Under the pieces are notes generated by a model. The model was given only the letters and a program-made list of their open reading frames with translations, was not told the origin of the DNA and did not search any database. The translations under genes and the position numbers were made by a program. Positions 33,201-62,600 of a stretch of 64,000 nt of DNA are shown one piece after another; within the stretch, counting starts at the first letter, position 1, and every line of letters starts with the position of its first letter. Source of the stretch: Amoebophrya sp. A120 (Eukaryota; Protista; Dinoflagellata); contig CAJINV010000007.1 of assembly GCA_905178155.1 (NCBI GenBank), forward strand, positions 4,366,258 to 4,430,257, in the 5' to 3' direction.

Positions 33201-34717
33201 TCACTGTCCTCGTCCAGGGAGCAAGAACCTGTGAGCATCGTCCTCCCTGCTCCACACACGCCCGCGGCGGCAGCATCAGGCTCAGCTCTCGCAGCCAGGT
33301 CGTCAGGAGCCAGCGGTAGATCATCCGTAGTCGCAGCTTTCGTCGTGGCGGTGTTTATGGAGAAAAAAAAGTTTGTCACAGTCACTAACTTGCAGGCTTT
33401 CGCTTTGCGTTACAAATTTTCTCAGCATCACAGACTTTTCATGTATTGCAGAAACACTAGGGAAATCCCTACCCTAATAAAGTTTGGCTGTGAAGACGCA
33501 TTTTTACGCATGGCAAACAATTTTGTATATGCAAAAATGCGCATGAGTGATCTTGACGAACATTTTTCTTTGATAGTGTTGTGACTCGCTGTAGTGGCAG
33601 ATTTCTCCCGATGCAAATTTTTCCAAGGCTTGAACTTGGAGCGGGTCTTGTGTCTCCCCCTGGTCGTGGGTGTGTCTGTTACGGTTTCTAGTCCTGGTCG
33701 TGGCGTTCGTGTGCCAACAGTGGGCTGCTGATGCTGCCGCGGAACCTGCATGCGGCTATGTGTGGCCCCGACGAGGGCAGGCCGCTGTACTGGCGAGCCC
33801 GAAGACTCATCCCCTTCATCTTCGCCTCTGGACAAGTAGGATGAAAGCGATTCATCCGGCAGAGTTGACGATCGTCGTGTCTTTTTCTTTCGTGCTCGTG
33901 CTCCTCTTCGTGACTGGAGATGAAGGCCCCCATCGTCTCGGAACAGCTGGTCAAGGAAGGGAAGCACTTCATCCTCTTTTTCCATTCCAGGTCTACTTCG
34001 ATGGTTCACGTCGTGATCATCGCCGCCGTCGTCCTCGAGCACAGTAGAAACTGGCTTTTCATCACGTGGCAGCAACGTGAAAAATGTCGCTTGTGTATTC
34101 GACCTACAACTTTCTGTGTTCTTCTTTTGCGTAGAAGCGGTCGCCGCCTTCTGTTGATCATATCCCCGCATTATCGCCGGAACCGGTCGCGGTGAGCCCG
34201 CCTCGTCCTGGTCTTTAGAGCTATTTCCATGCGAAACTACCTTTGATGATGTTGACCCGCTACTACCGCAGGCCTCGTTGTCGATTTTCTTCTGAGTGCA
34301 GCCTCCTGCTCCTCCTCGTCCTTCACCATTCGCATGAAGATTCGCGTTTCCGTTTCCCGCCACACCACGTGTCGAAAGCAGTTTCTTCTTCGGCCGTGAA
34401 GGAGAATCGAATCCAGCAAGTCTAGCGGTGCTGGACGAGGACGACGAAAACGACGAAAACGTGGCTGACGCAGGTGCTGCAGACCTACCCTGCGATGTCT
34501 TCCTGGCTTCTGTTCGGACACGGACCAACGACTGCCGTGGTGAAAAAGGCGACGACGACGACGACGACGTTGATGAGGTGGACTCGCGACTACAGGTGCT
34601 TGTGCTTGATCCGGCGCTCGATTCACCACTACCTCTGTCACGACTCCGAGATTGGTGGCTCCTACTGTCGTGAATCAGCTGCCTCGAGGAGCGCTTCGGT
34701 GTTGATCGCGTCAACAT
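30227..34717 (-). CDS. Hypothetical protein (~1421 aa) with low-complexity N-terminus and globular-looking C-terminal half
   Basis: The 429-aa and 1052-aa ORFs join in frame (SHNT|ATTKAA) after removing element 33356-33575 and one TSD. Confidence 0.78.
33356..33575. mobile_element. TIR introner-like element (220 bp), non-canonical intron
   Basis: TSD gtgtt (33351-55, 33576-80); TATGGAGAAAAAAAAGTTTGTCA vs reverse complement TATCAAAGAAAAATGTTCGTCA; contains an in-frame stop. Confidence 0.87.
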
Positions 34718-42084: not shown

Positions 42085-45000
42085 CTATCGCAAAAGTTGT
42101 TTCTTCGTTTCCTGTCGCAGTTTTATCGCCTCTGCGTGTTCCCGCACGATCTCCTCTTCGACAGAGTTCAGGGTCAGAAACCGCCACACGTGAATCTCCT
42201 TCGCCTTCTGCCCGTACCGCCGAATCCGCCCGATCGCCTGTAACTCGAAGGAAATGGCTTTATCGACCGTTGTCGCGTTCATGGGGTGGACGAGGAGGCA
42301 GTGGTGGCAGACTTCCGCTAGATTCGTGCCTGCAGCGGAAGTCTCAAGGGAAAGCAGAAGGATGTTGGTGGACTTCGGACCTTTAATATTGCCCGTAGTG
42401 GAGGACTTCGCTAGTCCTGCTGCGGATTTACTAGTAGTATCCTTGCTGTCTGGAGGTCGTGCAGTGGCAGTACTCATGTTCTTGAACTCCGACAGTTTCT
42501 TGTTTTGCGCGATTGCGTCCCCGGTCAAGGTTCCGTAATTGAACCCGTATTTTTCCAAGCAGCTCCCAATTTTGGTCATCAAATTCTTCCACTGACAAAA
42601 CAAAATCACCTTCGCGCCCGGTTCCGTCTCCTCAATGTGCAGTAGAACCTGGCAAATAGCCTGGATTTTCGACCCGAACTCCGCGTGCTTTTCCGGATCC
42701 CGGATCTTTTCCGAAATCAAATCGTTGTCGTACTTCTGCACTTGGTAGGAACTGGTAGTAGGTTGCTGAAGATCCGCAGAAGTGGCACCTGCTACTGCAG
42801 CACCAGAAGCAGAGGATGAGTTCGCAGCCGCAAAAGCGCCTCCGTTTTGATGTTCACTTGTCGGCTTGCCTGGTTTCGATTTCATTTTCGCCTTCATCTG
42901 CTCTAATTGCAAGTTTTCGTCGCGCAGCTGGTCGATCTTCTGCTGCTCGTTCTTCGCTTCGATCTTCACGCCCGCAGACTTCATTTCCAGGGCCAGCGAG
43001 TAGATGTCTTTGGATCCGCGGAGGGGTTTGCGGCAAAGGGCGCACTGGTTGTGCTCGGCCCGCATCTGTCGGTGCACACACTCGACGCAGAAAACCTTAA
43101 TTTTTGTGTTGGAAAGATTTTTCGTTGTACTTAGACGCGCTGCATGGCATCGTTGTAGCAGTGCACGCATATTTTTTGTTGAACACTTTTTCCATTTCCG
43201 TCCACTAGAACTACTTCTACCCAAGACAAACCAAAGAAAAAAGCAATACATGTCCGCAGCTGGTTATCGACAGGCTGCTCACCGGGAGCTGGTCTTCCAA
43301 GCAAAGCACGCACTTTCGACCTGATAGGTTTTTGGACTCCGACTCGTCGATTTGTTTTTTTCATAGATAGTAATACTCCCACAAAAATCAGTTTTGTCAA
43401 CACGCAGGATGTGACGAATCCATCTAAATTTGAGCTATCGCTAGTCGTTAGCGATGTTAGTAAGTAGCTCGGAGAAGTTGTAGCAAACAAGATGTATCAA
43501 ATCCATACCATCATCATCGTCGTCCTCCGGTTTCTCTTGCTGCTCCCCTCCGTCTTTGTTTCCGTAAATCTGCAGCGTTTTCCTGAAAAAGGCAAACACG
43601 TTCACAACCTCCCTCAACGCGCTGAACTGCGAGAGAAACTCGCTGATCGTTTTCTCCTTCAGCCGCTCCAGTTGCACCCCTAGCTCCTGCTGCTTTTTCC
43701 TCCCTTTCGCATTGGCATCGACTTCGCCCTGCTTTAGCGGTGCCGGGGGCTGGTAGCGGAGAAAGGAAACGGCGTTTTCTGCTTTGTTGTTCTCTGCTTT
43801 TGCAGAAGACACGGCTTTTGATGATGATGATGAGCTAGAATTATTTGTTGAAAGAGGTATTTTGTTCATCGTCAACTGTTGCAGCTCTTCGTATTGCTTG
43901 TTCTCTTTCAGGTCGAATTCTTTCAAAACCTTCTTCTTCTCCTTTTCCGGAAGACTTTCGAAAAATTTCGGGTGAAATTTCGCCCTGGAAACCTTCTCGT
44001 GCTGTTCCCGCTCATGGTCCCACTTTTGCTGTATTTTCTGGATTTTCTTTAAATTATCAGCTGTTGGAAAGAAGCTGGACAACACGTTTTGCCAATCGTA
44101 GCTATTGTTCTTGTTCCCGTCCGCCCACTTGATGTTCATGGATGAACTCGACTCCATGTTGAACAGTTTCTGCACCGCTTCCCTCGTCAACCCGCTTTTC
44201 TCCTCGTTGTTGATCATTGCAAGAAACGAATAAGCCTGAAACGGGAAGTCCGCAAACGTCTTCGCCAACCTCCGCTTCTTCTCGGCATCCTGCTGCTTTT
44301 TCCGCTTCATTTCCTCGAGATCGACGTCCTTGCTGTTCACCCGTTTCGGAAATTTCTGCGAAGCCGTAAGTGGAGCAGCTCTGGTGCTGTTCGCACTCGC
44401 GACATAGCTTTTGTCTTTCTTTCTCAATCTTGGATTTTTAATTCCGTCAAGGTCGTCGAAGTCAACATCAAGATCCCCGGCGTCATTTAAAACCGCATCT
44501 AATTCGTTTATTGCCAGCTCGTCCACAATCGGCGGGCACACGAGGTCTAGGCCCAGTTCCTGCTGTTCCGCGTTAGAAGTTTTGCCCTCGGGCGAGGAAG
44601 CTGCGCCAGCTCCTTCTTTGTGAGAGACAGAGGATTTAGTCTGGTTGTTTCTTGCATTCGCAGAAGAGCTACTCGCAACGGCCCCTTGTGCACCACCAGC
44701 ATTGGAAATTTTCTTCATTGCCGCCACAAAAGTTGCAGAACCTCCCTTCTTGTCTGACAAATTCTTCATCTTCGCCTGCTGCTGCCGCACGTAAGACGCG
44801 GCGGTTTGCGACACGGGGTCTAGAACCTTCGAAAAGCCCTTTCTCCTCTCCTCCGGGTCGCTGTTCGAAATCGCCTTTAAAACGGCGAGTCTCCTACAAA
44901 CTCCCTTGATCTGCGTGACAGCCTGTTTCACCGCGGACAGCTTTCGCTCGAAAATCCGGCTGCACTCCGCTCCGGTCGAGCTCCCCTCGCCCCCTAGAGT

Positions 45001-48000
45001 GTGGTGGCTGCAAAGCTGAAGCAGCTTTGCCCGCTTCTCCAAGGCCGTGTCAGAGGCTGAAGATAAAGCATTGTTTCTGGAGCTACCGCTCAGGGGTGCA
45101 CCAAATGGATCAGCAGGTGGTCCTCGTGCGGTACCAGTGAACGTCGAGCTTCCAGCAGCTCCACCTGGCTCCTCCGTAGAGCTGGTACTCGCACTTTGGT
45201 AGTTCATCGCGTTCGCTTGCGCGAGGTAAATTGCGCGCTCCTCTGCGGTGTGGGAGACCGCGATCCAGTGTTCTTTTGTCACGATTTTGTCCGCGTCGGT
45301 CACGGCGGAATTTTGGCGGACGAACCTTTGCAGGAATTTCTCGCAGTTTTCCCTAAAAACTTTCGACCGGTCCCACGGGTGACACTCCTGCAGGTATTTC
45401 AGCCGCTGCTTCGCAAACGCGTTTCGGCTGGCCGTGAAGTAGCAGTCCCGCACATTCGCGCAAAACCCCTTACTGACGTTCTGCACGTGGTGGCTGTAAG
45501 CGCCAACGGTGTTTTGGTTTTCCGTGAAGCCCTCCTGCAGTCGCGCGCCGTAGACCCCGAAGGGCTCAATCTGGAACGTCGCGGGTTCGCTGCCGTTGTT
45601 CCCCCCGCGGCCTCCTCCGTGCCTGTTGTTCCGCCGCCGGGCTTCGCCGTACAGAAAGCTGTCTTCGCTTGGCGTGTAGTCCGACATGGTCAAATCATCG
45701 GAAAACCCTTCGTCGTCCTCATCCCCGTCCCGGTCAAAGTCGGTGTCGAGCTCCGATCGCATGTCGTTGTGATTCACGTTGCTGGTCGTGTGCTCCGACT
45801 GGAAGGAACTGTCAGGCGAGGATTGCATCAGAACATCTTCTTGCACTTCTTCGCCCAGCAGAAGGTCTCCGGGGAGTTCCGGCTGGTGAATATAGTCATC
45901 ATCGTCCTCCTCCGGGGGGAGCAAAGTTTCCACTGCACCGGCGTTCGCAGTGGTGGTGTGTAGAGCTCTAGCTGTACTCGCAGACGATCCACCGGCTTGT
46001 GCTTGTTGATTATTTGCAGTGCCTCCACTTCTAGCCGCGTTGTTCGCATTGTTGGCAATCAGCCCAGCCTGGCGCAGCACCGCGTTGCTTGTCGCCCCCC
46101 GGATTGGCGCCGCTGAGCCCGCACGTGCTCGATTTATGCCACTGTGGTCACCGTTCGCCCTGCCGTGGTTCAGCTGATTGAGCAATTTCCCATTCCCGCC
46201 AGCAATGAAGAGATCCGCGGTGTGGTTGTGCGTGCCGCAGTGCTGACAGATAAACGCCAGCTTCGTACTGGGTTCGTGCGACTGCGGAAGAACCAAAGAA
46301 TTATTTTCCGCAAACTTCACACTCTTCACCGTGAGAGATCTTCCATCTGGCACGTTCCCGGAGACGTAGGGCTCTAGACAGCAGTTGCACTTCCACTCGG
46401 TCATCGGCAACAAATCGTACTCATACTGCCTATGATCGTTGGATCCTCTCCGCCCGCCGTCCGGTTTCGCCGACTTCTGACCGCGTTTGAAGTTAAAGTT
46501 TGGGCAACTCACCCCAAGCGGATCCATCACTGCGGACAAGCCAGAGCGGGGGTCTTTGAGGTCGGCTCTCATCGCTAAGCGGTGGAGCCGGTCCGCGTAC
46601 TCGGCTTCCACTTGGGACACGCCACAGAGGTCGACACCAAATAGCGACGCGGTGGCGGCGACATTCCGAACCGAGTCGACTTGCGGCGTGCCGGTTAGCC
46701 CGAATTTGCTGAAAGCCTTCAGGTTCAGAAGCGAGGAGACCTGCTTGTCTTCAAACGCCTCCAGCTCGTGGAACTCGTCGAAAACAATCCTGCGGAAGTA
46801 AAATTGCTCCAGTAACGGGAACAGCAGTAGCCGGTATTTGTCGTTTTTTATCGAAGAAGATGAAGAACTAGAACTACTTCCGCCGGCAGAGGAAGATTTC
46901 TTTGGATACACACTGTCCATGATAGTCCGGCTCTTCGACGCCGGTGGCACAACAGAATTTCCGAACAACTGACTGGCCTGCGACGCGGCTGCAGACGGCT
47001 TTGACCGCCCGCGCTTCATTACCCCCGGCTTAGACTTGCTGGCGTCGGCGTCGACAAGGATGTTGGTGCTGTCAACATCCATCATGTCGCTACCTGTCGT
47101 GCCACTACCTCGTCCAGGTACGGAAGAGGTTTTTGCGTTGGTCTTTTGATCATTCTGTTCTTTGTCTTCCTCCGCAACCTCATCCAAATCCACCAAAACG
47201 TCCTCCTTTACCTTTTCCTTCAGCGCCCAGGGTTTAAACCTGACCGGGAGTTTTGAATGCGTGCTACTCATGAAGACTCGCGTGTTCTCCCGTAGTTTCG
47301 TAATGTACTCGTGTTGGTGGAGTTGGAAGTCCGTGTCGTCTTTTTTTTCCTCCTTTTTCTTCTTCTTCGGTTTAGGTCTACGAATACCAAAGACATCGAC
47401 CTCGTAGTCCATATCATCATCCGAAGGCGATCCGGTTAAGTCGTCGTCTTCAAAGTCGTCGTTGTAGTACGGCCGATATCCCAGTGAGTTGTGGAATCGG
47501 CCCAACCTCTGATCCGCCTTTTTTCGCCGGGCTTGCTGCTCTTTTTCCAGCTTTTTCTGCTCTTTTTCCTTCTCCTTTTTTTTCTTCTCCTCGAGTTTTT
47601 CCTCTTTTAATTTGTCGTCGCCTAATCCGGACAGTTCTTCGAAACGCGACTGGTGGACGGAGCTGTATAAAACCCGGTACGTCACGAGAATTACGTCGTA
47701 CTGCTGCAGATCGTACACTGTCCGGATCTTCAAGGGGGAGATGTTCTTGCAAACCAGGATATGCAATACAAATTTCCCGTACAACATGTACAAGATGCAT
47801 CACAAATTTCACCAATTTGGAGCGTCAGATTTGTCATGCTTAACTAGGATCGAAGCCAAGTTTTGTCATACAGAGACCGCATTTGTACGAGTACGTCTAC
47901 GTGTACGGGAAATTTACTGTGGATACAGGATCTTCAGCTTGTTGTTCGGCAGGAATTTTTCGATCTCGGTGCTCCACTGGTCGATGAGGTGGGAGGGGAC

Positions 48001-51000
48001 GAGAATCAAGGTGGTCTTCGGGGCTGGGAAAAGACCGGCGGATTCGTGAGTAGAAGTCGAAGGAGAGGAACGATTTGTACTAGAACTGCTGTTCGTCCAC
48101 AGCATCTCTTCCTCTGAAGCCGAGGAGAAAGGACCACCGTGCGCGGAGGAACTGCTGGAGCTCGACACAAAGCCTCGTCCTGATGCGAGATTTTGTTCAC
48201 TCGCGTTTGATGTTCCAGCGGCTGCACCGTCTTCCCTTAGCAAGATCTTGCACATTTTCGCGAAGGTCAGCTGCTTTTTCTCTTCTTTGCCTCCTCGCTT
48301 AGTTTCGTTAGCATCCTGCTGCTCAACGGTTGACTTATCTCCGGCTGCGCTACTCGCGCTCGCCGAACTGCTGCGTTCCTGAGTAGGAAGCTCGTCTTGC
48401 TCAGGAGCCGCGGTTTTCATTCCTTGTTTCTCTTTCTTCATTGCCTGCTGCTTCGTGCCTCCTTTGTTGTCCTTCTTCATAACATTCGTGCTAGAAGAGC
48501 CAGCTGCTTCTGCTGCAACTGCCTTTGCTGCAGCTTTCTTGCCCTTCTTGCTAGTGTCCTGCTTCTCGTCCTCGTCGACTTTTCGCTTCTTCAAAGGCGG
48601 CCTGCTTGCATTTTTCGTTTTCACATTGTCGTCCGCCAGCAGGTCGTCTTCTTCGTCTTCGATTTCATCCTGGTCCTCCGCTTCTGAGTTTTCTGCCGAG
48701 GAGTTGGAGAATTGTTGTTGGTTCAGCTTCAGATCCCGCTCGCTCTCCAACTGAAACCGGTCTTCCTTCGACAACTTTCGTTCCATCACTGTAGTTGAAG
48801 AAGCTCCTCCTGCGTAATTGTCTTCTGTGTCTCTGTTCGCCAAACGCAGCCAATTTTTGATCAATCCCAAGTCCATCGCCTTGGAACTTGCCAACAAGCC
48901 AATACACGTCGCGGTCTTTCCGAAGCCAATTTTGTCCGCCAGAATACCGCCGCGATTGTTGTAATTCGCCGTCATGTTGAATTCCAAAGACCACGTGGCC
49001 TGCGACAAAGGGCAATTTTTGATCGCCTTGTACTCCGCAACACGGCGGTGAAAGGAGTCGCTCGGATCGTGTCTGTGCGAGCCTTCCAGTCTTCCGCTGT
49101 ACGGCTGGTGTCCCTGGAATCCTCTTTTCGCAGGAAGATACCGCTTGTACTCCACTTGCAAGTAGTCGCTGTCGTGCTCCCGTTTCTGCATCCAATAGAG
49201 GGAGCGGAGTTGCTCCGGGCGGAGCGGGTGGTGCCTCGACCAACCGGGGGGCATTTCGCCGGTTGGGTCGTTGTCGTTATTCATGATTTCAAACCGCTGG
49301 AAGTCCTTGGTCTGACTTTGACTGTGGAGGTCCTTCTCACTGTTATTTTTCTTGTTCTTTTTCTTCATCGCATTAGTTCTGGTGTTCAGAGGACCTCCGG
49401 TCAAGCCGAGCAGGCCCTTGTTGTCTTTTGACGATGATTTCATGGCTTTACTTGATGCGCTCGCGCCTCCTGCCCCCGTCGTTCCGGCGAGAAGTTGGTC
49501 CTGCTTCTTTTTCATCTCCAAGATCGTTTTCCGGTCGATCACATAGTCCCTGCTCGGCGGCCGGCAGCTGTTCCAAATCGCGACGCCAGCCTCCAGCTTC
49601 GCGGGGGCAAACCGGATTCTTTCGAGAAAAAAGCGCTGAAAGATCCGGCCGAATTCCACTCTAATTTGCCACTGCACGTGCTGCTCGCGAAGAAAGTTGC
49701 ACTCCTTCAAGAAGTTAACTTTTTGTGCGTTCACAACGTCCAGCACCAATTTTAACGAAGTGCCGGTAAGGTCCTGATCACCAGTGTCGGCCTTCTCCTT
49801 ATTTGCAGAAGCTCCGGCTGTTCCCGCTTTGCCTCCAGTAGTCGCAACTTTTTTCATCGCTGCTTTCGCTTTTGGTGCGGCTTTTGCTTTCGCTTTGCTC
49901 TTCGCGGCCGGTCCAGTTTTTGCTTTTGCAGCAGCTCCAGATGGTTTGCCATTTTCTGGCTTAGATGCAGTCTGCGTTTTGACAAAACGCAGTACATCGT
50001 CCTCCAGAGCGGCCTTCTCTTTTTCCTTCGCCAGCCCGTTACAACCGGCGAGCATCCGCTTGTAGACGCGATCAATGGCGCTGGCTGCTTCCTGGGTGTT
50101 TGTGACATCCACAGCACCCCCGCCAAGGCCCGCCGGGTTGTCCTTTTGCTTCTGCAGGGTGGTTAGTGTCGGTACTAACAAATGTCGTTCCGTATTGATC
50201 ACCTTAATGTCGATCGGAACGACGCCCAGTAACGAATTGTGCGCCTGCTCCGTGTTGTTCTCAATGCTTCCCTTCCCATGGGGTTGGTAACTTGACAAGA
50301 AAGAAAAATTGCTGGCGGAGTGATCGGACTTGACGAACCGCGGCACGCAGTCGTCCAGCCGGTTGTCGCGGATCAACAGGCGGTCCATCAATTCCAGACG
50401 ATTCATCGCCGGGTTAGCCCCCTCGTGGGCTCCGAGACCGTCTTTTCCCAGGCCAAACACCGGGTTGAATTTGGTTTTGTCCAACGAGAGCGTCGCGTCC
50501 GGGTTTTCTACCGCGACCGCCATTTTCTGCAGAAAGTCGTCCCGGAGAAAGTTGACTTCGTCGTTGATCCCCTCATTCAAGTGCATGCAGTGGATGTCGG
50601 AGTAGAACCGAAGGTGCAGCCACTGGAACCGTATGCAATGCAAATTTCCCGCACATGTACAAAATGCATGACAAATTTCGCTAACTTGCAGTGTCCAACT
50701 TGTCATGCTAGACTAGGACTGAAGGCAAATTTTGTCATGCAGAGACTGCATTTGTACGTGTACGGGAAATTTACTGTGGATAAACCGGGTCACCGGCCGG
50801 TCCTCGTTTTGCGACTTCCACCCCGTTATCAAATGCAAAAATGTCTGGGTCTGGAACAAAGAAACTTGTCATGCTAAATCTCAATCACGTACGAAGTCTG
50901 TGTTGCATGATTACCAAAAGCTGTCCACTTTTGACCTCATCGAGAGGCAGTTTCTCATGCAGGATAGGCATGATATAACTCTCACGGAGTCTGTCATGCT

Positions 51001-54000
51001 ATGCCCTACATACCAGACCGCTTGGGTCATGGAAAACCTGCATGACAAGTCTGGCAGTTTTCAAAGACCCAGACATTTTTACATTTGATACCCGTGCTCA
51101 AGTGCGCACAGTGCGCCTGTTCCCACTGCGCCTTGCGCTGCGCTTCCGCCCGTTGCCGATGGTGGAAATTCATGAGCCCGATCTTCCGCTTGTCCATGCT
51201 GAAGATGCTCGGCGGCAAAGGGGCATTCTCCTGTTCCAGACGCGACGGGCCAATCAGCAGCTTCTGGCCTTGGGTCGCGAACACGTCGGTCAAGTCCGTC
51301 TTGTCCTGACCAACGAGGAAGCAGGGGTTCTGTTCCAGGGCGAGAGCGGTCAAATTAGTCGGGATCGAGAAGTCTTGCTGGTGGTCGGGTTGATGTTCTG
51401 ACTTCTGATTTTCGTTGTCGCCTAAATCGCGCTTCGATTTTCTTCCATTTTTTTCTGCTGTTTTATTATTTCCGCCGACGTCCTTCTCGTGGTCCTTCTC
51501 CATCTCTTTGGTGGATTTCATGCTCTTTGCTCGACCTCCTGCAGCTGTGGAAGTTCCGATTGACGGTGCGTTTTTCAACAGTAATTCCGTGATATCCACC
51601 GGAAACCGCTGCTGAAAGGTCGCAGAAGATTGCGAAGTAGAACTCGTCTCTTGTAAGAACGAAGGCCTGATGTTGTCCAAGGAGGACGTCGCCTTGTGCT
51701 TCTTCATCGTCTCTCCCATTACGTTTTTGAAAGCGTTGGCAAAGAAGGGATTCTTGCTCACCACGGTATCGTCAAAAGCACTGCTGCAATTGTTTGCTTT
51801 ACCGACTACCTGAGAGGCGGCGTCACCCGCGGCTTCACCGCCTGCAAGAGAATCAGTCGCGGCTCTCTTCGTCGCGCCCGAGCACAATTCCTGCAACGGC
51901 ATCAGACTCGGTGTGCAGTTCGCCACCGAATCCGGCCGGATTACCCGCGCGTGTGTTTTGTTCATGTCGGTTTTGTGTTTCGTGTTTGAGGGCTGCGGAG
52001 TGCCGGACGCCATTAAATCGACCACAACGAAATCGGAGCCGGTTGCTGGTGTCTCCTTCACATACAACTCCATCTTGCTAGAAGTTGAAGTCGCATCTTC
52101 TACGCCACCATCTTCCTTTTCCTTATCTTCCTTCCCGTCCGTGATCGTTAACTGACTAACACCTTGTCCTGCTCCTGCTTTTTTTCCCACCGCGCTCCCT
52201 CGGATCGGTAAAGTTTTGTGCACCTGGTTGTAGGTGGCGGCGAATAGATCCTTGACCGCCTTGCAGCAGTCGTTGGTCGCCCCGGGGAATTTGAAAAAGC
52301 TGGGCAGATCGATGACAAAGTTCGCGAGGTTTTGCAGCATGTCATTCGTCATCTCCACGTTCAGCGGTGAGCCCTGGTCCCAGTCCGACCCGGACACGTT
52401 GCCGTAATTCAGAGATTTGTAAAGATTTTCCACGTCGGTCAGGAAGGAGAGCTCCTTGTGAAAGTGCGAAGTGGGGTGCTGTCGAGGTGCAACTATGGTG
52501 CTGTCAAGCGATTTCAACATCTGGAACTTCTGATCCGTGGTCCTTGCGTGATTCATCGCGTTGCTATTTATTTCCTCAAAATCCACATCCATGTCGTTAC
52601 TTTCACCTGCAGGACCGGTTGCTTGTTCCCCGGTAGTCGCCATCGGTTCTTGGCCTCTGGGATGAGCGTCAAATCCTGGAATCTGCGGGGCCAAATGTCC
52701 GCTCGCGGGAAGATTTTTCGTCTGCGACGCCAGCAAAATTGGTTCCAACAACTCACAGAACTTCAACAAGTCGACGTTGTCTTTCGTCCCGAAATCGTCC
52801 GTCATCAGCATTATCAACATCCCGACCATCGCACGAAGCACTTTCTGCCTCACTTCAAAAACCTCTCGATTTTGAGGTAGCGAGAAGATCTTGTCGCGCA
52901 GCAAATTGTAGTCGTGGAGAGGAAGGGGAGGTGGCAGGGAAGCAGCTGCAGCAGCAGTGGCGGATGACCGGAAAGTTGTACCATACACATCTAGATCTTC
53001 TACTTCTGCGTGGTCAACATCACTACCGTTGGTGACGTCATTCTGCTCCGACGCACGCCACGACGCTAGGATCTGCTCGTAGTTTTCCACAACCTCCTCC
53101 ACAATACCGTGCTCCACCAGTCTGGCAATGCAGTGGTCCAGCGCGAACCAGACCTTGCAGAAGACCATTTTGCTACTGAGCGGCTTGTCCGCCACCCCAA
53201 AATTTGCCGGGTTGCTGTCCCCCTCCAGAATGGTGGCCGCCGTGTCCTTCATAAGGTCCTCCATCTTGAACTCCCTGTCTTTATTGGAATACTGCAAGCT
53301 GTGCTGCCACCGCGGAGAGGGCATGGTGTGGTGTAACCTCACGAAGTCGCCGGTGCCGAGGAAGTTCTCGTTGATGTAGCAGTTGTCCAGTTTCACCGCT
53401 TTGCTCATCTTCGGCGCATTGAAAGGCGTGTGGTGGTTATGGTGTTTCGACGGCGCAGCCTTTGAAGATGCTCCTGAGGTGTTTTTGCTACTACTTTTTT
53501 GCTCAGCACCATCTTTCTTGCCGTCCGCTGCAAAGTTCGGCTTGTTCAGAATGTGCGAGCTGGTAGTCAGAATGCTCTTCTCTGTCGTTTTCAACATGCT
53601 GGCCATATCCCGGCGGGTTAGCGCGGGGAACTTCACGATGTCGTCCGGCTGCGCCAGCCAGGAGCTCACTGCCTCGTAGTAAACGACCTCAGAGGACGCG
53701 AAATAACTGGATTCATGCGGGTAAGCGTGGATAGCGACCTCTCTAGTAGTTGCAGTTGTGCTGCCCGCCGGCGCTGTTGCAGAAGAAGTTAATATGTTGT
53801 CTCCAAAAGTTGCCCTGTTTTCCTCGTCCTCGTCGCGCACGACCACCTGTTCAATGTCAGAGATCAAGCAGGTAGTTTTATTGTTGTGACCAGAAGGCGT
53901 TATCTGCTGCTTGAACAGCTTCGAACTTTTCCCGTTTTTACTGCCGTTTCTGCTCTTGTCTTTCTTCTCGCTTTCCGCCCGCTTGTGCTTTTTCGCGGGC

Positions 54001-57000
54001 GAGTTCTGCTTCTTGTTTATGTTTTTGCCCTGCATATTATTTGGCACGCGCTTCATCGCCACAACGCTTTGCCAATTGGCCACTCGCTTGTACACATGCT
54101 TTTGGCCCGCCCGGACGCCGGCCAGAAAGCTGAGAGGCCGGGGTTTGCTACTCTCCTCTTCCTCGTTATCGGTATCCCGATCCTCCGCATCCTCGTCCTC
54201 AATATCGGAGTTTTCGGACCGTTTCTCACCAACAGCATTATGCTCCTTGTCCTTGCCAGCACCGCGATGAAGCAGCTTTCCAGTTTGGAAAGGATGATCC
54301 GACGATTTGATGTTCTGCCTCTTTTCATACTCAACTTCCATTTCCCTATCCCGTTGCCTTCTTTTCTTCTCTTCCGCTTCCCTCTCCCTCCGGTGCAGGT
54401 TGTTGACCAAGTCAAATTCCCTCAGATCAGCGTGCGGGCAGTGTGTGCGGAACAGAAAAGGATCAACGCCCGTCTGGTTGCAATCCACGTCGTTAGTGGG
54501 CTCGCATTGCTGAATCTGCATGACCGCCTGCTTCAAAAGGGATTTGTTCTTCTGGAGGTGCATTTTTCTGCTGCTCCTACTAGCACCAGTAGTGGGTTCT
54601 TGTCCACCATCACTTTGGCAGGAATTCTGCTCCCGTTCTTGCAACATGCGCTCGAGCACGTTCAGCATCGGAGCGGTGTAGATGTCCGAGGCTGCTGTTG
54701 ACGGTGGTCGTCGCTCGCTCGCCCGATTCTTCTCGTTCTTCAGAGAGCATTCGTAGACGAACCGCAACTGCTCGATGTATTGCCTTGTTGAAGGACTCAA
54801 ATCTCGCACGGATTCGTAGCGGGCGGGAGTTATTCCTTTATTTTCCTGCAGCATATTGTTCAATTTTGCAGGAGCCTTGCTGCTAGAAGACAAAGAGGAA
54901 CCGACAGCTTGGTTCGTGCTGGTGTTTATAGTTCCGCACTGTTCATCCGCAAATCCGAACTTCTCTAGCTTCTGCTCCATCTCCGACAAAGCTTCCCTTA
55001 GTTTCCCCTTCACGTCCCCAGCACCGCCGTCGGTAGTGGTCCCGCGAAAAAGCATTCGGTTCAATTTGATCCAGCCCATATGCGGATCGACTTGGTCCTT
55101 ACTGAGAATGTCGGCGAATTTATTACCACTCTTGTTCTCCGCTTTGGACTTCATTTCTTTCTTACTCTTATCCCCCTGCTCAGCCTCGTTTTGCGCCGCT
55201 AACTCCTTCTCCCTTTTCTCCAAATCTTCTAGCAGGTCCAACAGCCGCTTGTTCGGTCCACATTGCTCCAGCGGTATCTCGCCATCCAGATAGCTACCCG
55301 CTCCTCCTGCTACCTCCTCCTCAGCACAGTCGTCCCTCCGTTCACAGATCGGGACGCGGTGCACGGACAGCGCAAACCGCCACATAATGTCGCTGATAAT
55401 GCTGTCCGGGCTATTTCCCACTTCCTCCTCTTCTTTCCGAGAGTCGTAACTTTTCATAGCTGCGTCCGCCCGTAAATTCACGTTTTTCTGATTGTCTAAC
55501 TGGAGAAACGTCCGCAGGGGGTTCTTCCACTTTCCGAGGAGCATCCAGTTTTTCAACGCGTTTTCAATGCTCTCGCGGAGGAACTGCTGATTCCGCCGGT
55601 CGAACGACTGCCGGCTTTTGTAGAAAGAACTGTCTTGGTTGTACTTGGTTGTGGAAAATTTCGTGCCGAGTGTGACAACCCGGGTCACGCACTTCAAGAA
55701 TGCGTTTACTTCCTCCAAAAGAAGCTCGGGAAAGCGAAAAAAGGTTCTTGTTCTACTTGCCGCGTCGAGGTGCTGCTGTGTTGATGAAGACAGAGCATTT
55801 TTATGCCCGCCGGTAGTTGTTGAACAAGACACTAAACCACGACGTTGTTCCGACGAAGACGAAGATGAAGATCCTGACAAGAAGTTCTTGTTGTCACCAT
55901 CAACTTTGTCGAAGTCAAACACCTTGAGCGTATCCCGGTAGCTGAGCGGGCCGCTTTTGTACTCGTAGTCCAGTCTGTAGTTCGTGTTGTGCTTGTGCGT
56001 CCGCCTCTCGTCCTGCGTGTCGGGCTGTTCGGTGAACCTGGACCGCGTTAAGCCGGACAGTTTTTCGAACCGCATGTCTTCATACACCAGCTGCTCCCCG
56101 TATCCACAGTAAATTTCCCGTACACGTACAAATGCGGTCTCTGCATGACAAAACTTGCCTTCAATCCTAGTCCAGCATGACAAGTTGGACTCTGCAAGGT
56201 AGCGAAATTTGTCATGCATTTTGTACATGTACAGGAAATTTACATTGCATACCCCGTACTCGGGCGGCAATTCCTCCTCCCGGGTCGCTTCGGAATGATG
56301 GATGTGTCAGGTTTGAAATCGTCAAAGTTGAAATAGTTTGAGTTTGTCATGCATAAAACAGATACCAGTCGGAAGCCCACTTATCAAGCGGCGCATGACA
56401 AATTTTCCGAGCACCGGAATCCAATTTGTCATGCTGTTTGGGCACAGAAGATTGCTTTTGTCATGCGAGTTTAGTAGCTCTATTTCAAACCCTAAATAGG
56501 CTCATAATCTGCCTCATTTGCCATCCCGGCAAGACAGGCACTTCATGCCTTGCACTTTATGCATGAGAAATCATTTCAACTTTGTCGATTTCAAACCTGA
56601 CGCTTCCATAAGAATCCTCGTCCGAGTAGAAATCGTCCTCGTCAGAAATAAAGCTGTCGTCGTCATAGTGGCGGTCTCGGTTGTTCCCCCTCCGATGGTG
56701 CTGTGCGTAGTTCCGGTTGCCGGCCGGCCCGACCTGCTCGCCCATCGCCGCAAACCGCATCGCAAGCTCCGCGTGGCTGGTCGGCGGCCGCAGGATAGAT
56801 TCATTTATGGTTCCCACGACGTCGCTGTTGTCCTCGTTTTCATCAACTACACCTTGTAAGATAGCTTCAACATCATCCAGCACCTGATTGTCACCGACAG
56901 TTTGTCCAGGAAAGTTTAAGTTATTCGTGCTATTGTTTTCTTCATCTCGTTCTCGCCGTCCTGTGATGTTGAGTCCGTTGTTCTGGTCTCCTCCAAGTCC

Positions 57001-58453
57001 AACCTCTTGATGTTGTTGAATTATTCCGGAAGAGAAAGATGCTGGTGGAAGCCTCTCCACGAGCAGGTCCCGCACCACTTTTCCGTACCGGTCCTCCAAT
57101 CTTTCGCCCGTGAAGTCCCTGTGGTACCCCACCAGCGTCTATCAAATGTAAAAATGTCTGGGCCTGGAGGAGTCATGCTGTTTTTGCATGACACAGAAGG
57201 TCTGGCATGGAAGCTCTGGCATCACAGGTTTCGAGAAGCTTCCGTCATGCCGAATCCGCATCACAAATCCCCCATTCTGGTGACAGAAATTGGGCAGCTT
57301 TTGCTACCTATGCATGAGAGATCTTTCTGTGTTCGGAAATGCGCATCACAAGTTTGTATTCTTCCAGACCCAGACATTTTTGCAGTCCATAGCGTCCGAA
57401 TGGACACGAGCGACCGGTTGCGCGCGTCGGCCTCTTTGTCGCGCTCTTTCATGTTGTGGTAGTCGTGCGGGGAGGTCGTGTTCGTCATCGCCGTGAAGTC
57501 CTGCCGGCTCCCCATAACCTCGTAGTTTTTCGTGCCAAAATAGTACCCGGGCTTCGCACCCAGAAACTTGTTGGAGGGAATACAAAAGGGAAGCGAGGAC
57601 GAGGATGAAGACCCACCAGCACTACCTCCGTGCGTTCTACTGTACTGTGCGAAGAGCTCGTCCACCGTTTTCGGCTCGGTGCTTTTTGTGGTTGCGAGCA
57701 GGTCCTTGGACTCCTTCAGGACCAGGGCTTCGATCTGGAGGTTTGGGAAATGGAAAATAAATCATGTACAGATATCAAGCGACAGTTGCGATATCATATA
57801 TCACACAAGGAACTTACTGTTAGACTCAAAGCAAACTACTGGGTCCTGGCACTGACAGTGATGAAAAAACTAAAAATTAATTTTTGAAAAGCAAGAAAGC
57901 CTTTATATGTTGATACGGTTTTTCGAAGCTCCTCCCGCTTTGCAGCGTCCATAATACTATTTGGCTCTGCGGTTGTTTGAAGCGCGGAAGACGAGGATGA
58001 GGATGCGGAGGCTCCTGTAGGAGGTGCACCAATTTTGATGTTTGTAGCCAAACTTCTATCCCCGCCCCCGGCTACAACATCTAGCAACTGGGCCGCAACC
58101 TTTGCCGCGGCTTCCTCTGCGAGTTTCATCTCCTGGGTCGTTTTACTATTTGGTAGAACTGCGTTGTGGTAGTTTGCGAACGCATTAGCTTGATGCATCG
58201 CAGCAGAGCTACTACTCGCAGAACCGCCTTGCTGCGCGCCATTTCTGGTGCCGGCACCCCCTCCGGGGGTATTATTTGCGTTGACGTTCATGGTTGCCAC
58301 TAAATTGGCGAACCGCTCCGGATTCGACAAATATTTGTCGCAAGCCACGTCGACGGACCGGAATTTCTTGATCAACGCCTTCGCGAGCGCCTCATCGACG
58401 GACAGGATTTCGCAGACCGTCCGGACCTGTTCCGAAAATGTCGACCCAGCCAT
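42085..58453 (-). CDS. Giant SNF2-family helicase/ATPase with RING finger (Rad5/Rad16-like group), ~4838 aa
   Basis: Motif I GGILADKIGFGKT; Ia TLILVPSHLIDQW; II RIVFDEFHE; III GLTGTP; RING CVLC...CGHVFCVEC...CALCR; IV KVILFCQW; V AAGTNL; VI QAIGRIRRYGQ. Three GT-AG introns (57735-57916, 43321-43508, 43096-43249) and six TIR introns give 14517 nt = 4839 codons. Confidence 0.9.
47760..47925. mobile_element. Family A TIR introner-like element (166 bp)
   Basis: TSD cagga (47755-59, 47926-30); TATGCAAT...GTGGATA; excision gives KLKIL|VCKNISP. Confidence 0.93.
50632..50782. mobile_element. Family A TIR introner-like element (151 bp)
   Basis: TSD aaccg (50627-31, 50783-87); excision gives RPVTR|FQWLH. 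Confidence 0.93.
50827..51090. mobile_element. Family B TIR introner-like element (264 bp)
   Basis: TSD cccgt (50822-26, 51091-95); TIR TATCAAATG(C/T)AAAAATGTCTGGGTCT; excision gives HLSTG|WKSQ. Confidence 0.93.
56101..56251. mobile_element. Family A TIR introner-like element (151 bp), inverted relative to the other two copies
   Basis: TSD ccccg (56096-100, 56252-56); its reverse complement matches 50632-50782 with ~9 substitutions by manual count; excision gives PEYG|EQLV. Confidence 0.93.
56297..56610. mobile_element. TIR introner-like element (314 bp), family C
   Basis: Flanks ggaat and agaat (one mismatch); GAT...ATA ends; inverted repeat gtcaggtttgaaatcg(t/a)caaagttgaaat; excision gives DEDS|EATREEE. 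Confidence 0.88.
57140..57391. mobile_element. Family B TIR introner-like element (252 bp), inverted relative to 50827-51090
   Basis: TSD gcgtc (57135-39, 57392-96); TIR core AAAAATGTCTGGG; excision gives SIRTL|VGYHR. Confidence 0.92.
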
Positions 58454-60491
58454 TTTGTTTTATTGGAGCGTGGTGTGGTCCACTCGCACTCGGTGTCAAG
58501 TAGTAGATGCTTTACGGTTTATTTTTGCTCGCGACCTTGGATGTCGACATACCTAGCGTTTCTTGAAAATCAAATCTGTACTATGTGAAACAACGAGTTT
58601 TGTCAGTAAAATCTTCACTTGTCGAGTTCAAAAAGTCGCACGAAAGAGGTAGATTGATTCGGTGAAACTACTAACTTGTAACGTTCACCTCGGTCGTCGC
58701 GTCGTTCGTCATCGTACAACGTGCCAAGCCTGCTAAGCAAGTAAGATTCGGATAATTTCAAAACGCTTTGACTTTTTTCGCAGCGTCGGGCGGTGTTGCC
58801 CTCCTGCATGTGCAGTGAAGCAAAAGGCAACAGGACAAACATGAGCGGTTTGTTTCTGTCCACTAGTGCACGACGCAGGTCAACCGTCTAGTGACGTCGA
58901 CATCATTAGCATTACCAACCGCGATCGAAGAGATTGTATTGCTATTTCCATTTGATATTTTGACGAGCGAATTTACCTCCATTTCAACGACGATGACAAC
59001 TACATCGAAGTAGACCATATTACCAGGTTCACGTCAATGAAGACACTCAGTCTGACGCAACCTTTCCAAGAATACAGTTCCGGCGAAACGATCTGACTTT
59101 GCTCGACCGCCGGGAAGATCGAAGTGCAGGCCGATAAGCTTCGTATAAATATTTACTCCGAGGCGAAGATCGAGAAGTCTGAGCCGTTGCTTTCACGAAC
59201 GAATGAAGAGACCTTGAAGCCACGAGGACATTGAAGATGATCCAGTTCTTTATTCGAGTTCGCTCACGCTTTCGCAAAAAGATCTTCGCTTTGAAATAAG
59301 TACTTGTTACTTTCACTTTCTCGTAGTTCCCAGATCGATGTTGCATAGACCAATGTCGGATCCTACTAAATTCAATCCTTTAGGGGTTGTATTGGCCGTT
59401 TTGCCCTTCGGCCAGCCACAGAAGTTGTCGTGAAGCGGCTTTCGGCGCCATCGGAATATAATAAACAGGTACAGGATCGACCAACTTTTGGAACATCTGG
59501 TATGAAATTGTTTTCGGATCTCTTTTGCAAACTCTGTTTCACCGGAGTTTTTAGTCGAAGTTTCGATCGTCAACTTCATATTTTTCGATCTGTGAGGCGC
59601 TAAGTCGGGTCACGAGGAAGAGAAAGGTCTTTGAAGACGGAAGCTCTGCTCACCATGCAACGGCGCAGTCTTGATGTCATGATAGGAGAGCTCCATCATC
59701 AGTCAAATGATCTCTCTTAAAAATCCGTGGGGGATGTCTCATGCAATTTTCTTGCACGGCCACGGCCGAGCGGCGGGGGGGGAGGTCAAGACTAAATACT
59801 TAAAAAGGGGGGATGACTTTCTTTCTGATCATCTCGATCCACGAGACTTGGGTCGCGGTCGTTTCGCAAATGATCTCACGACAAGACAATTTATGTCTTC
59901 AATCGTCCTGATAAGGAGCGGACGAGGAGGGATGCTTTTTCCAAACAACATTAACAAGCAAATGTGCTATAGCTATGACAATCTTGATCTTCGTATCCTA
60001 TTTCCGTTCGCATCAAATGCGACAATGTGCTGGACGAGTCGATTGCAGTATGCACTATTCAGCACGCGCCTCGTCCTGTCTTCTTGTCCTCAGTCGTCGT
60101 CGTTCATCTACTTAACGAAGGAATTGCTTGGCTTGGTACTACTCATGGAAAAATCATTCTACAATCACACAAAGACGCGTGAGCAGGTGCAGGACACTAT
60201 CAATCGCACACGATGAAGATAAAAACTCACCGCAGATTTGAAGATTGGTCCAGTAAGAACCCAAAATCACCTCGTCCAACCCGGAATACGGTACTACGTA
60301 CTACTGTGCGATCGATGTGTCTTTTCCTTTTGTCGTAAACATGAAAAAATAAAGAAATTATACCATGTTGGAAAATCTTCCATTTTTTTTTACTGTTGGT
60401 GCATCATACAGATTGCAACAAGCATCGTCACTGTTAGTCAACTGAAAAAACGAAAATAAATCTATCCTACAGATCCACTACTTACTTTTCT

Positions 60492-62588
60492 TCAAATCTC
60501 TCCCATGCCCATCCGGTCCCTACTACTTCCGGCCTGCACTCCTCTTCGCCTGACCTCCGAGTCTGTGCTTCTTCGCAAGTAGTTCTGGGAGGCTGCGGAC
60601 ACCAACTTGTTATCGTCGTTCTCGTCATCCGATTCCACCCCGGCGTACACCGGCGAGTGCTCCACGTCCGTCCCCTTCGTTTCGACGACAAAGAACACCA
60701 CGAAGAGCAGCGCGAGAATACAGAACACCGAGAACATCCCGTACAACACAGTCGCCTTGTCCGAAAGCATCCCGAGGACAAAGAGTATCGGAATCTGTAC
60801 TAAGTTGTTGCACAGAATTGCCGCCATGGAGCAAGAAGCGGCGATGACGGTCGGGTAAATATCCCCGAGGTAGACCCATATCACGCCCCCGTACCCAAAC
60901 GCGAAGCCCGCGACGTACAGGAAAACCATCATCATGACCAGAATGTCGTCCCAGTGAGAAGCGAGATCACCCTTTCCGTAGAACAAGTCGTTCTTCTGTT
61001 CGGGGGTGAGAGTTTGCTCTTCTTTATGGCTAGTGGTGTACAGCTCGATGGCGAAATTCGTTGTCATCGCTACCGACATGACGATTCCGGAGACCAAAAG
61101 GAGCGTCTTCCGCCCGAGTCGGTCGATGAGGAAAACCATGGGTAAGGTTGCTAGCAGCATCCACACCATCATCCCTGTCGTGTAGTAAACCGCCTTGCCG
61201 CCGGAGATGCGGCTGAAAATGTCGTTGACGTTGGTCATGATCAGGTTAATACCGGTGAGTTGCTGCATGATCGACAAACCGCAACCTAAGAGAACCCCCC
61301 GGCGGTACTTTTTGGAGGACAGTGCCCAGCACACGCCCTTGTGCTCGCCGGTGCGCTCTTGGGTCCTGTTTTTAAGTGGAGATGGGATGGCATTGGCATT
61401 TATGTGTTTTCCAAAGCTGTGATGCGCCCACTAATAGAAGTAGAACCAGTCTGACTTATAAGGCAGCCAGTGGTGTAGCAAAATTGTGGGCCACTAAAAA
61501 TCTATTTACGTATCCTATTTCACTTCTAGCTCTATATACCTTTCGATGATTTCGTTTATGTCGCCCGCGTCCAGTTTCGGATAGAGCTGCTTATACACCC
61601 CAGCCGCTTCCTTCAGCTTTCCCTTCGTTATCAGCCACTTCGGCGATTCGATCCCGGGTAACACCACCAAACAGAGGAAGATCTGGAGGATTAGTGGGAT
61701 AATCGGGAAGGCCAACATCACTCGCCACCAAATTTTCACCTGGAAGTTCCACTGGTCTTCGCCCCCGGGGAAGCTGTTGGGGGAAATCACGGTCACATTT
61801 GGCACGGCCTTTGCGAAGTTCAGTTGCGTGGTCATCGCCATGCCCAGCAATGGGGCGATCACCTGCCCGATAACCGTCATGAGCTGAAACCACGCACCAT
61901 ACTGCCCCCTTACCACCGGGGGGATCACTTCGGCAATGTAGGTCGGCACGATCCCGGCCGCGCCCGTGGTGGCGAACCCGCACAGAAATCGCCCGACGAG
62001 AAACATGGGCCAATTCACCGACGCGGCGGTGAAGGCGTAGGCAAGGATCCCGAGAAACGCGAATTCCATAATCGCCTGCCGTCGGCCCCGCAAGTCGGAC
62101 CACCACGGGCTAAGGGTGCAGACCACGACCATCCCGATCGTGAGCATCAACGCCGCGCCGAGTATCGTGAGGAGCTTTTTCTTCCCAAGCAATTCCCCGT
62201 CGTCGTCGCACTGCACGATGACATTCCCATTGGCGTCGGTTCCGCAGGTTTCAAAGGCCAAGTGTATTATCTCCATGGCAGTTTGGGCCCCGGAAATGAG
62301 TAGACCCATGGTCAAACTGCTCATGACGGCGGTGAATACGATCAGCCCCATCATCTTTTTTGACGCGTAGTCGCCGATATTCTCCGACCCGAGAATCGAC
62401 TGGGTTTTCAGCAAAGTCGGCTTTTTAGACGACAAAAGCCCGGAGGTTTCGTCCGCATTGTACAAGTAGTCTGCAGCTGACGTGGCAGAGAAAGGCTCGT
62501 CATTGCCCTGTTTCAGCTTCCGCGACTGTGTTCGTTGTACCACAGGTTTGCTCGCGCCTGCACTTGGTTTTGGTAGTACGCGCGACAT
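60492..62588 (-). CDS. MFS sugar porter family (hexose transporter-like), ~640 aa; intron 61366-61539
   Basis: Motifs SDLRGRR, GRFLCG, YIAEVIPPVVRG, ESPKWL, QQLTGIN, DRLGRK, ETKG; many hydrophobic helices; the last residues may be intronic. Confidence 0.92.
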
Positions 62589-62600
62589 CTTTTGTGCCTA

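Follow-up and report, generated by a model that had tools for sequence, protein, structure and literature searches.

Opposite-oriented copies of a short inverted-repeat element are removed precisely from one Amoebophrya transcript, with cuts likely guided by the element ends

How the tens of thousands of non-canonical introns of Amoebophrya are removed has been an open question since 2021; in strain AT5, nearly all introns are canonical. A 64,000-nt stretch of the Amoebophrya sp. A120 genome (assembly GCA_905178155.1, contig CAJINV010000007.1, positions 4,366,258 to 4,430,257; here called the window, in whose own coordinates all positions are given) poses this question in a narrow form. Two introns of a single gene, which we call B1 and B2, are copies of the same short inverted-repeat element lying in opposite directions. 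What, then, marks the cuts in both? We consider it probable, taking the explanation as a whole, that B1 and B2 are opposite-oriented transposon copies that are precisely removed from the transcript by cuts guided by the ends of the element.

Two copies of family B in opposite orientation

The host gene (42085-58453, minus strand) has 10 exons encoding 4838 amino acids, and its introns are six hairpin elements and three GT-AG introns. B1 and B2 share this one gene and this one transcript strand. B1 (264 nt, 50827-51090), delimited by its inverted repeats, a profile match and contig skips, lies on the plus strand, which is the reference orientation of the element and is antisense to the gene. 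B2 (252 nt, 57140-57391), assigned to the same family by profile and by a contig skip, lies on the minus strand. Both elements have the ends TAT...ATA. The terminal inverted repeats of B1 begin TATCAAATG, and 23 of its 24 terminal bases are paired; in B2, 19 of 24 are paired. B1 is flanked by a 5-bp target duplication, CCCGT (50822-50826 and 51091-51095), and B2 by GCGTC (57135-57139 and 57392-57396). Besides these repeated duplications and long inverted repeats, the A120 motif TAT-N7-AAA is present at the ends of both elements. An element plus one duplication amounts to 269 nt for B1 and 257 nt for B2, each leaving a remainder of 2 on division by 3. The coordinates, sequence motifs and lengths given for these elements in a first-pass annotation, made from the letters of the window, all hold.

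That annotation had also placed family B in both orientations, and alignment bears this out. B1 and the reverse complement of B2 are identical at 180 of 267 columns; in the same orientation the two elements are identical at 165 of 285 columns, with far more gaps. When 45 nt were trimmed off each end, the local alignment score was 38 for opposite orientation versus 18 for the same orientation, and shuffled controls (n = 500) gave a mean of 16.5 and a maximum of 27-28. We also scored the elements with a profile of the family-B interior, built from 89-104 of 105 metagenomic copies that were oriented from three different seeds, leaving out the copies in the window; family membership of those 105 copies had itself been filtered against B1. 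The profile matched B1 at 152-155 bits and B2 at 144-149 bits, on opposite strands, and scored 15-23 bits, 23 at most, on the wrong strand. The interior of family B is weakly self-symmetric, yet the opposite orientation of B1 and B2 is not in doubt. No match to group I or group II introns or to any other described RNA was found with Rfam at gathering score in window positions 47000-59000.

Removal from the transcript and position of the cuts

Seven of 11 sequencing runs were compared with the window. Contigs from four of them, X1 to X4, were matched at 98% likeness, and over about 20 kb they do not differ from the window at any base. At each of the gene's six hairpin elements, these contigs skip exactly the element plus 5 nt, with their main path running through the joined form. 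The joint at B1 (50821/51091) skips exactly 269 nt and occurs in three of the four runs (X1-X3). The joint at B2 (57133/57391) skips exactly 257 nt and occurs in X1 alone, one of the four runs, at a depth of 5.8; no contig of X2 or X3 crosses B2, and X4 spans neither B junction. The 10-kb contigs without B1 are also without two CT..AC introns, that is, GT-AG introns on the minus strand, one of them at 43321-43508. The X1 contig without B2 also bridges the canonical minus-strand GT-AG intron at 57735-57916, which fixes the transcript strand. Since the contigs skip GT-AG introns on the minus strand, we take them to be spliced minus-strand transcripts. The intron at 57735-57916 starts with GTATCAA, resembling a G followed by a family-B end, a likeness that is probably due to chance.

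When the intervals at all nine contig-supported joints, which include that of a further GT-AG intron (43096-43249, minus strand), are removed, the gene becomes a single minus-strand frame of 4840 codons, 4838 of them from the first methionine. This frame is identical at every residue to the public Amoebophrya sp. A120 protein P0121; thus, B1 and B2 are already treated as introns in the public model. The junctions proposed at first pass, HLSTG/WKSQ for B1 and SIRTL/VGYH for B2, are present in the contigs and in P0121, at residues 2146 and 290, respectively. Pfam matches to SNF2-related, RING and Helicase_C domains lie at residues 2635-4708. A retained B2 would introduce an in-frame stop at about amino acid 338 of 4840, and a retained B1 at about amino acid 2172, in each case before the SNF2, RING and helicase domains are reached. 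Both elements must therefore be removed, as the first-pass annotation had claimed from their lengths. Tolerance of the elements by read-through or frameshifting is ruled out by the in-frame stops.

We compared each possible cut register with known splice-site dinucleotides. None of the six registers of B1 and none of the seven of B2 is GT-AG, GC-AG, GA-AG or AT-AC; B1 has one GT..GG register, and B2 has one AC..AG register. Nor does any of the gene's four further hairpin elements have a canonical register. One of these, element C, has GAT instead of TAT at one end and a duplication with one mismatch, and it is excised exactly despite the altered terminal base. At the last position, the mRNA retains the base of the downstream duplication copy, which places the 5' cut at least 1 base upstream of element C. 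The mismatched duplication (56292-56615) thus fixes part of the cut register, and such duplications, present in about 1 in 9 of the elements here, offer a general route to mapping cuts genome-wide.

Orientation, register and ends across families

Family B is repeated: in the DNA-like run X5, element depth is thousands-fold above flank depth. A metagenome scan for the family-B end motif found at least 147 loci (about 390 estimated), 80 of them with wide flanks and all 80 from one assembly; viral contigs gave no match to the motif. The assembly is that of a relative, whose RPB1 piece is 74% identical to one protein and then about 43-50% identical to dinoflagellate and perkinsid proteins. Among 48 strict B copies, 44 have a perfect 5-bp duplication, 3 match at 4 of 5 bases, and one lies at a contig end. 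Scanning the loci and the window for any TAT...ATA hairpin with a 5-bp duplication gave 243 candidates of many families, compared with none in shuffled loci. With overlaps removed, 235 elements remained, 229 of them from the loci, and 98 had both flanks of at least 75 nt.

We scored each flank of these elements alone for coding potential. Outside the window, 34 elements had coding-like, stop-free flanks, and the strands of the two flanks agreed in 33. All 33 are in register once the element and one duplication are removed. Family B accounts for 15 of them, all in register, with 8 oriented like B2 and 7 like B1. With stricter cut-offs, 26 of 26 elements were in register, and the orientations of family B stood at 5:6. 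A looser strand call on joined flanks (104 of 235 elements called) gave 19 family-B copies like B2 and 20 like B1; the length is not a multiple of 3 in 13 of the former and 9 of the latter. By the same looser call, a 149-nt family has 7:6 orientations, with 7 ambiguous. These flank-scoring tests superseded a first strand test on the 48 strict B copies, which was callable in 8 of 50. Conserved domains are split by elements in both orientations: in locus L053 (oriented like B2) the split falls between positions 24 and 26 of the Rpb1_5 profile, and in L082 (oriented like B1) between positions 112 and 115 of ABC_tran. An RRM domain is split by an element in L058. Separately, a 972-nt element with perfect family-B ends (L053, 1501-2472) lies inside a second conserved RPB1 motif, and its removal restores the motif.

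The target sites appear to be close to random. The 88 strand-called elements with perfect duplications have 78 distinct duplications, and no duplication position departs from background base composition at p < 0.05. A GH-AG register is available in 14 of the 88 elements, compared with 10.0 ± 2.8 expected by random insertion (p = 0.105), and a GT-AG register in 5, compared with 3.5 ± 1.8. A pyrimidine/purine junction rule finds no support, such junctions occurring in just 14-26 of 88 elements at any register.

The ends carry conserved bases. Across families (470 ends, L001-L147), positions 11-13 are nearly always A and position 9 is nearly always G, position 4 is almost exclusively C or G, and position 5 is never T; positions 1-3 are fixed by the search pattern itself. 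These conserved bases could be read as a motif by a transposase or a splicing factor alike. A long terminal stem is predicted on both strands, with z-scores of -7.7 and -6.2 for the sense strand and -7.3 and -5.4 for the antisense strand. In several families, the first nine end bases are drawn from the same small set of variants, perhaps because a single transposase or splicing factor serves them all.

The remaining hairpin elements of the host gene are also removed. Family A is represented by A0 (166 nt plus a 5-bp duplication, 47760-47925, plus strand, joint 47754/47926, in four of four runs), A1 (151 nt plus 5, 50632-50782, plus strand, joint 50626/50783) and A2 (151 nt plus 5, 56101-56251, minus strand, joint 56095/56252). 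Element C (314 nt plus 5, 56297-56610, with no strand assigned) has the joint 56292/56612; the joints of A1, A2 and C were each found in three of four runs. Contig joints also delimit two minus-strand micro-exons, one of 39 nt between A1 and B1 (50783-50821) and one of 41 nt between C and A2 (56252-56292). A2 is opposite to A0 and A1 and is 94% identical to the reverse complement of A1. The first-pass annotation regarded family B as cleaner evidence than family A for orientation-independent removal. This stands for A2, which is in frame and stop-free, could be read through, and is still removed; it does not stand for A0 and A1, which contain in-frame stops and must be removed too.

Elsewhere in the window, a 1210-nt element (13152-14361) with inverted repeats of about 200 nt (88.5%), TAT...ATA ends and a 5-bp duplication is a candidate longer relative. 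A member of the 149-nt family, which is abundant in the metagenome loci, lies at 22949-23097 with TAT...ATA ends and a 5-bp duplication, and a 220-nt TAT...ATA element with weak repeats and a 5-bp duplication lies at 33356-33575. Pfam searches detected no transposase in 11 open reading frames (ORFs), six in or beside the 1210-nt element and five in the 972-nt element; the first six gave no Pfam match of any kind. Nearly all long ORFs of the window are on the minus strand. An ABC-F-like ATPase piece lies at 21533-22777, and a minus-strand sugar transporter with one GT-AG intron at 59596-62597; the adjoining sugar-transporter exon and the longest host-gene exon are each 100% identical to Amoebophrya sp. 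A120 proteins. In X1-X3, contigs have a depth of about 26-36 in the 3' part of the host gene and of about 5-8 upstream (53000 region). This fits a long poly(A) transcript with 3' bias, although contig depth is no measure for ranking parts of a gene. In the raw RNA runs X9 (31 reads) and X10 (3 reads), partial element-like matches of 90-99% were found, none of them on host-gene exons. X9 contains reads of a B-like element (50823-50885) at 90-95% with other flanks; either these come from another strain that carries this family, or the run has little RNA of the parasite.

Explanations and comparison with known systems

B1 and B2 are copies of a small DNA transposon, likely a non-autonomous one, and the cuts are likely to be set not by GT and AG but by the two matching ends of the element, which are predicted to pair into a long RNA stem of the same appearance whichever way the element points. 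The 1:1 orientation and the random duplications place the signal outside the strand-specific interior, where a branch point or pyrimidine tract would lie, and outside the terminal dinucleotides, which leaves the symmetric ends. A transposase or integrase acting in trans would insert the element in either direction at a 5-bp site that is close to random. Once transcribed into pre-mRNA, the ends would pair and bring the two duplications together, a factor reading the base of the stem would cut at fixed offsets, and joining of the exons would restore the original sequence. As the agent, we lean slightly towards a cut-and-ligate route, with a nuclease and a ligase outside the dinucleotide-reading spliceosome, over a rewired spliceosome. 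More tentatively, and with a confidence somewhat short of even, we suggest a second mRNA splicing pathway that needs neither splice-site sequence nor strand: it would find paired TAT...ATA ends, cut within a random 5-base duplication and ligate without a scar, and it would have arisen independently of that in euglenozoans. If so, each transposon insertion would be harmless in either direction, which would explain the spread of the elements, and an enzyme that excises RNA without a scar and regardless of strand would make a useful tool.

Several points weigh against this explanation. G-U pairs are not in excess over A-C oppositions at sense-strand stem positions (82:71, p = 0.42; 22:25 in family B), and at the variable end positions 4, 5, 7, 10, 14 and 15 the two ends of a copy show no covariation. 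Any element bounded by terminal inverted repeats (TIRs) yields a stem, and the stem alone is no proof of its use. GH-AG registers are found in 14 of 88 elements in the sense direction versus 3 of 88 in antisense; base composition accounts for most of this excess, and a small effect may remain. Removal of B2 depends on one contig of one run. X1-X4 were labeled RNA by guess, none of the runs listed being on record as RNA, and their RNA status is inferred from the co-spliced GT-AG introns. X1-X3 come from one sample, all four runs belong to one study, and P0121 may itself have been derived from them; they therefore amount to a single line of evidence. Contigs also conceal minor retained or mis-cut forms. 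Finally, the family-wide counts come from DNA contigs of a relative, and the codon model used to score them was trained on the present window.

A spliceosome rewired to read the terminal repeat as a linear motif, with pairing a by-product of transposon ancestry, would also work in either orientation because the motif stands at both ends. It would account for end positions that are nearly fixed or vary independently at the two ends and for the lack of G-U bias. Most spliceosomal proteins are reported to be present, with U1 not detected, in this organism (PMC7789003), and the non-canonical introns of tunicates are described as spliceosomal (PMC11282704). However, the fixed positions may serve the transposase, and a cut within a random duplication leaves the terminal intron bases free, which is hard to accommodate in the known active site. 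Element C, moreover, has a changed terminal base and is still excised exactly. We consider a rewired spliceosome of this kind rather unlikely. Excision from DNA in expressing nuclei, as for the internal eliminated sequences of ciliates, would fit the TA-type ends, the inverted repeats and a removal that ignores strand, as expected of a reaction on DNA. However, contigs of X5 enter A0, A1, B1, A2, C and B2 from their flanks, reaching 24-44 nt into the elements at a flank depth of 42-47 and unbroken at the duplication (among the 15 of 235 joints listed; the life stage may differ). We know of no separate germline nucleus in Amoebophrya, so that excision from DNA would be inherited, and we judge it very unlikely.

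Template switching by reverse transcriptase across a hairpin between direct repeats is a known artefact. If it had produced the skips, the elements would remain in the mRNA; a hairpin with short direct repeats is its signature, and the RNA evidence here consists of contigs derived from complementary DNA. Retained elements, however, would end the frame before any Pfam domain is reached, and at all six elements the contigs mainly follow the joined form. In addition, elements lie inside the largest subunit of RNA polymerase II in relatives, and 33 of 34 flank pairs are in register and stop-free. We find this explanation barely plausible. Least credible of all is that X1-X4, whether DNA or RNA, stem from an allele or strain in which the insertions had never occurred. 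The guessed RNA label would permit this, but the contigs match the window base for base for about 20 kb, are without four GT-AG introns, and would have to be missing six insertions of three families together.

B1 and B2 belong to a class that is already described and annotated, the introner elements of Amoebophrya sp. A120 and A25 (Farhat et al. 2021, PMC7789003). As characterized in passages of that article, A120 introners have repeats consisting of TAT, seven bases and three or more A, direct repeats of 3-5 nt, non-canonical ends, inverted repeats of 8-20 nt or longer and a mean length of about 240 nt, and they form repeated families; with U1 not detected, the removal mechanism was left open. 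B1 and B2 match this description, being RNA-supported, non-GT-AG members of a repeated family with TAT-N7-AAA inverted repeats and a 5-bp direct repeat. The portions of the article compared here contain no statement on families in both orientations, a uniform 5-bp random duplication or the absence of dinucleotide enrichment: the main text has no match to "strand," three of the four matches to "orientation" seen concern genes, and figures S19, S23 and S25 lie outside the comparison. Nor did the parts of the literature covered, including a review (PMC11453091), yield a published statement of orientation independence in Amoebophrya; Huff 2016, the journal version of Roy and the datasets of PMC12130899 could hold one. 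What is new here is thus the orientation and target-site statistics, which narrow the open mechanistic question and make it testable.

In structure, the elements resemble MITEs (miniature inverted-repeat transposable elements) and other non-autonomous TIR DNA transposons, being short, non-coding, bounded by TIRs, flanked by a fixed-length duplication and present in high copy number. A120 introners with integrase-like ORFs are reported in PMC12130899. According to its methods section, that study required intron matches to be 5'-to-5', and counting in this way would split each family in two; the methods of PMC9860276 allowed opposite-orientation pairs. Polarella glacialis and Aureococcus anophagefferens are described as having TIR introners with target duplications that form introns in either orientation and in several registers (10.1101/2020.10.14.339549), and family B is like them in forming an intron in either orientation. 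As presented in parts of that preprint, however, these introners carry or recruit GT, GC or GA together with AG, have constrained duplications (such as GHN6) and show an orientation bias, whereas family B has no such sites, random duplications and orientations of 20:19.

The nonconventional introns of euglenids and hemistasiid diplonemids work in a similar way. In the accounts drawn on here, they have no canonical ends, paired termini and direct repeats at the junctions; a MITE origin has been proposed for them, and RNase III plus a ligase is among the proposed removal routes (PMC3935182, PMC12621601, PMC11282704). A stem joining the ends is a shared feature, in our case a predicted one. In contrast, euglenid introns have CAG/CTG at fixed offsets from their ends and pyrimidine/purine junctions, neither of which accompanies the TAT...ATA ends of family B. 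Euglenozoans are also an unrelated lineage, for which circular excised introns have been reported in these sources. Unlike the euglenozoan introns as documented there, those of Amoebophrya fall into large, recognizable transposon families, and it is this that permits a test of orientation.

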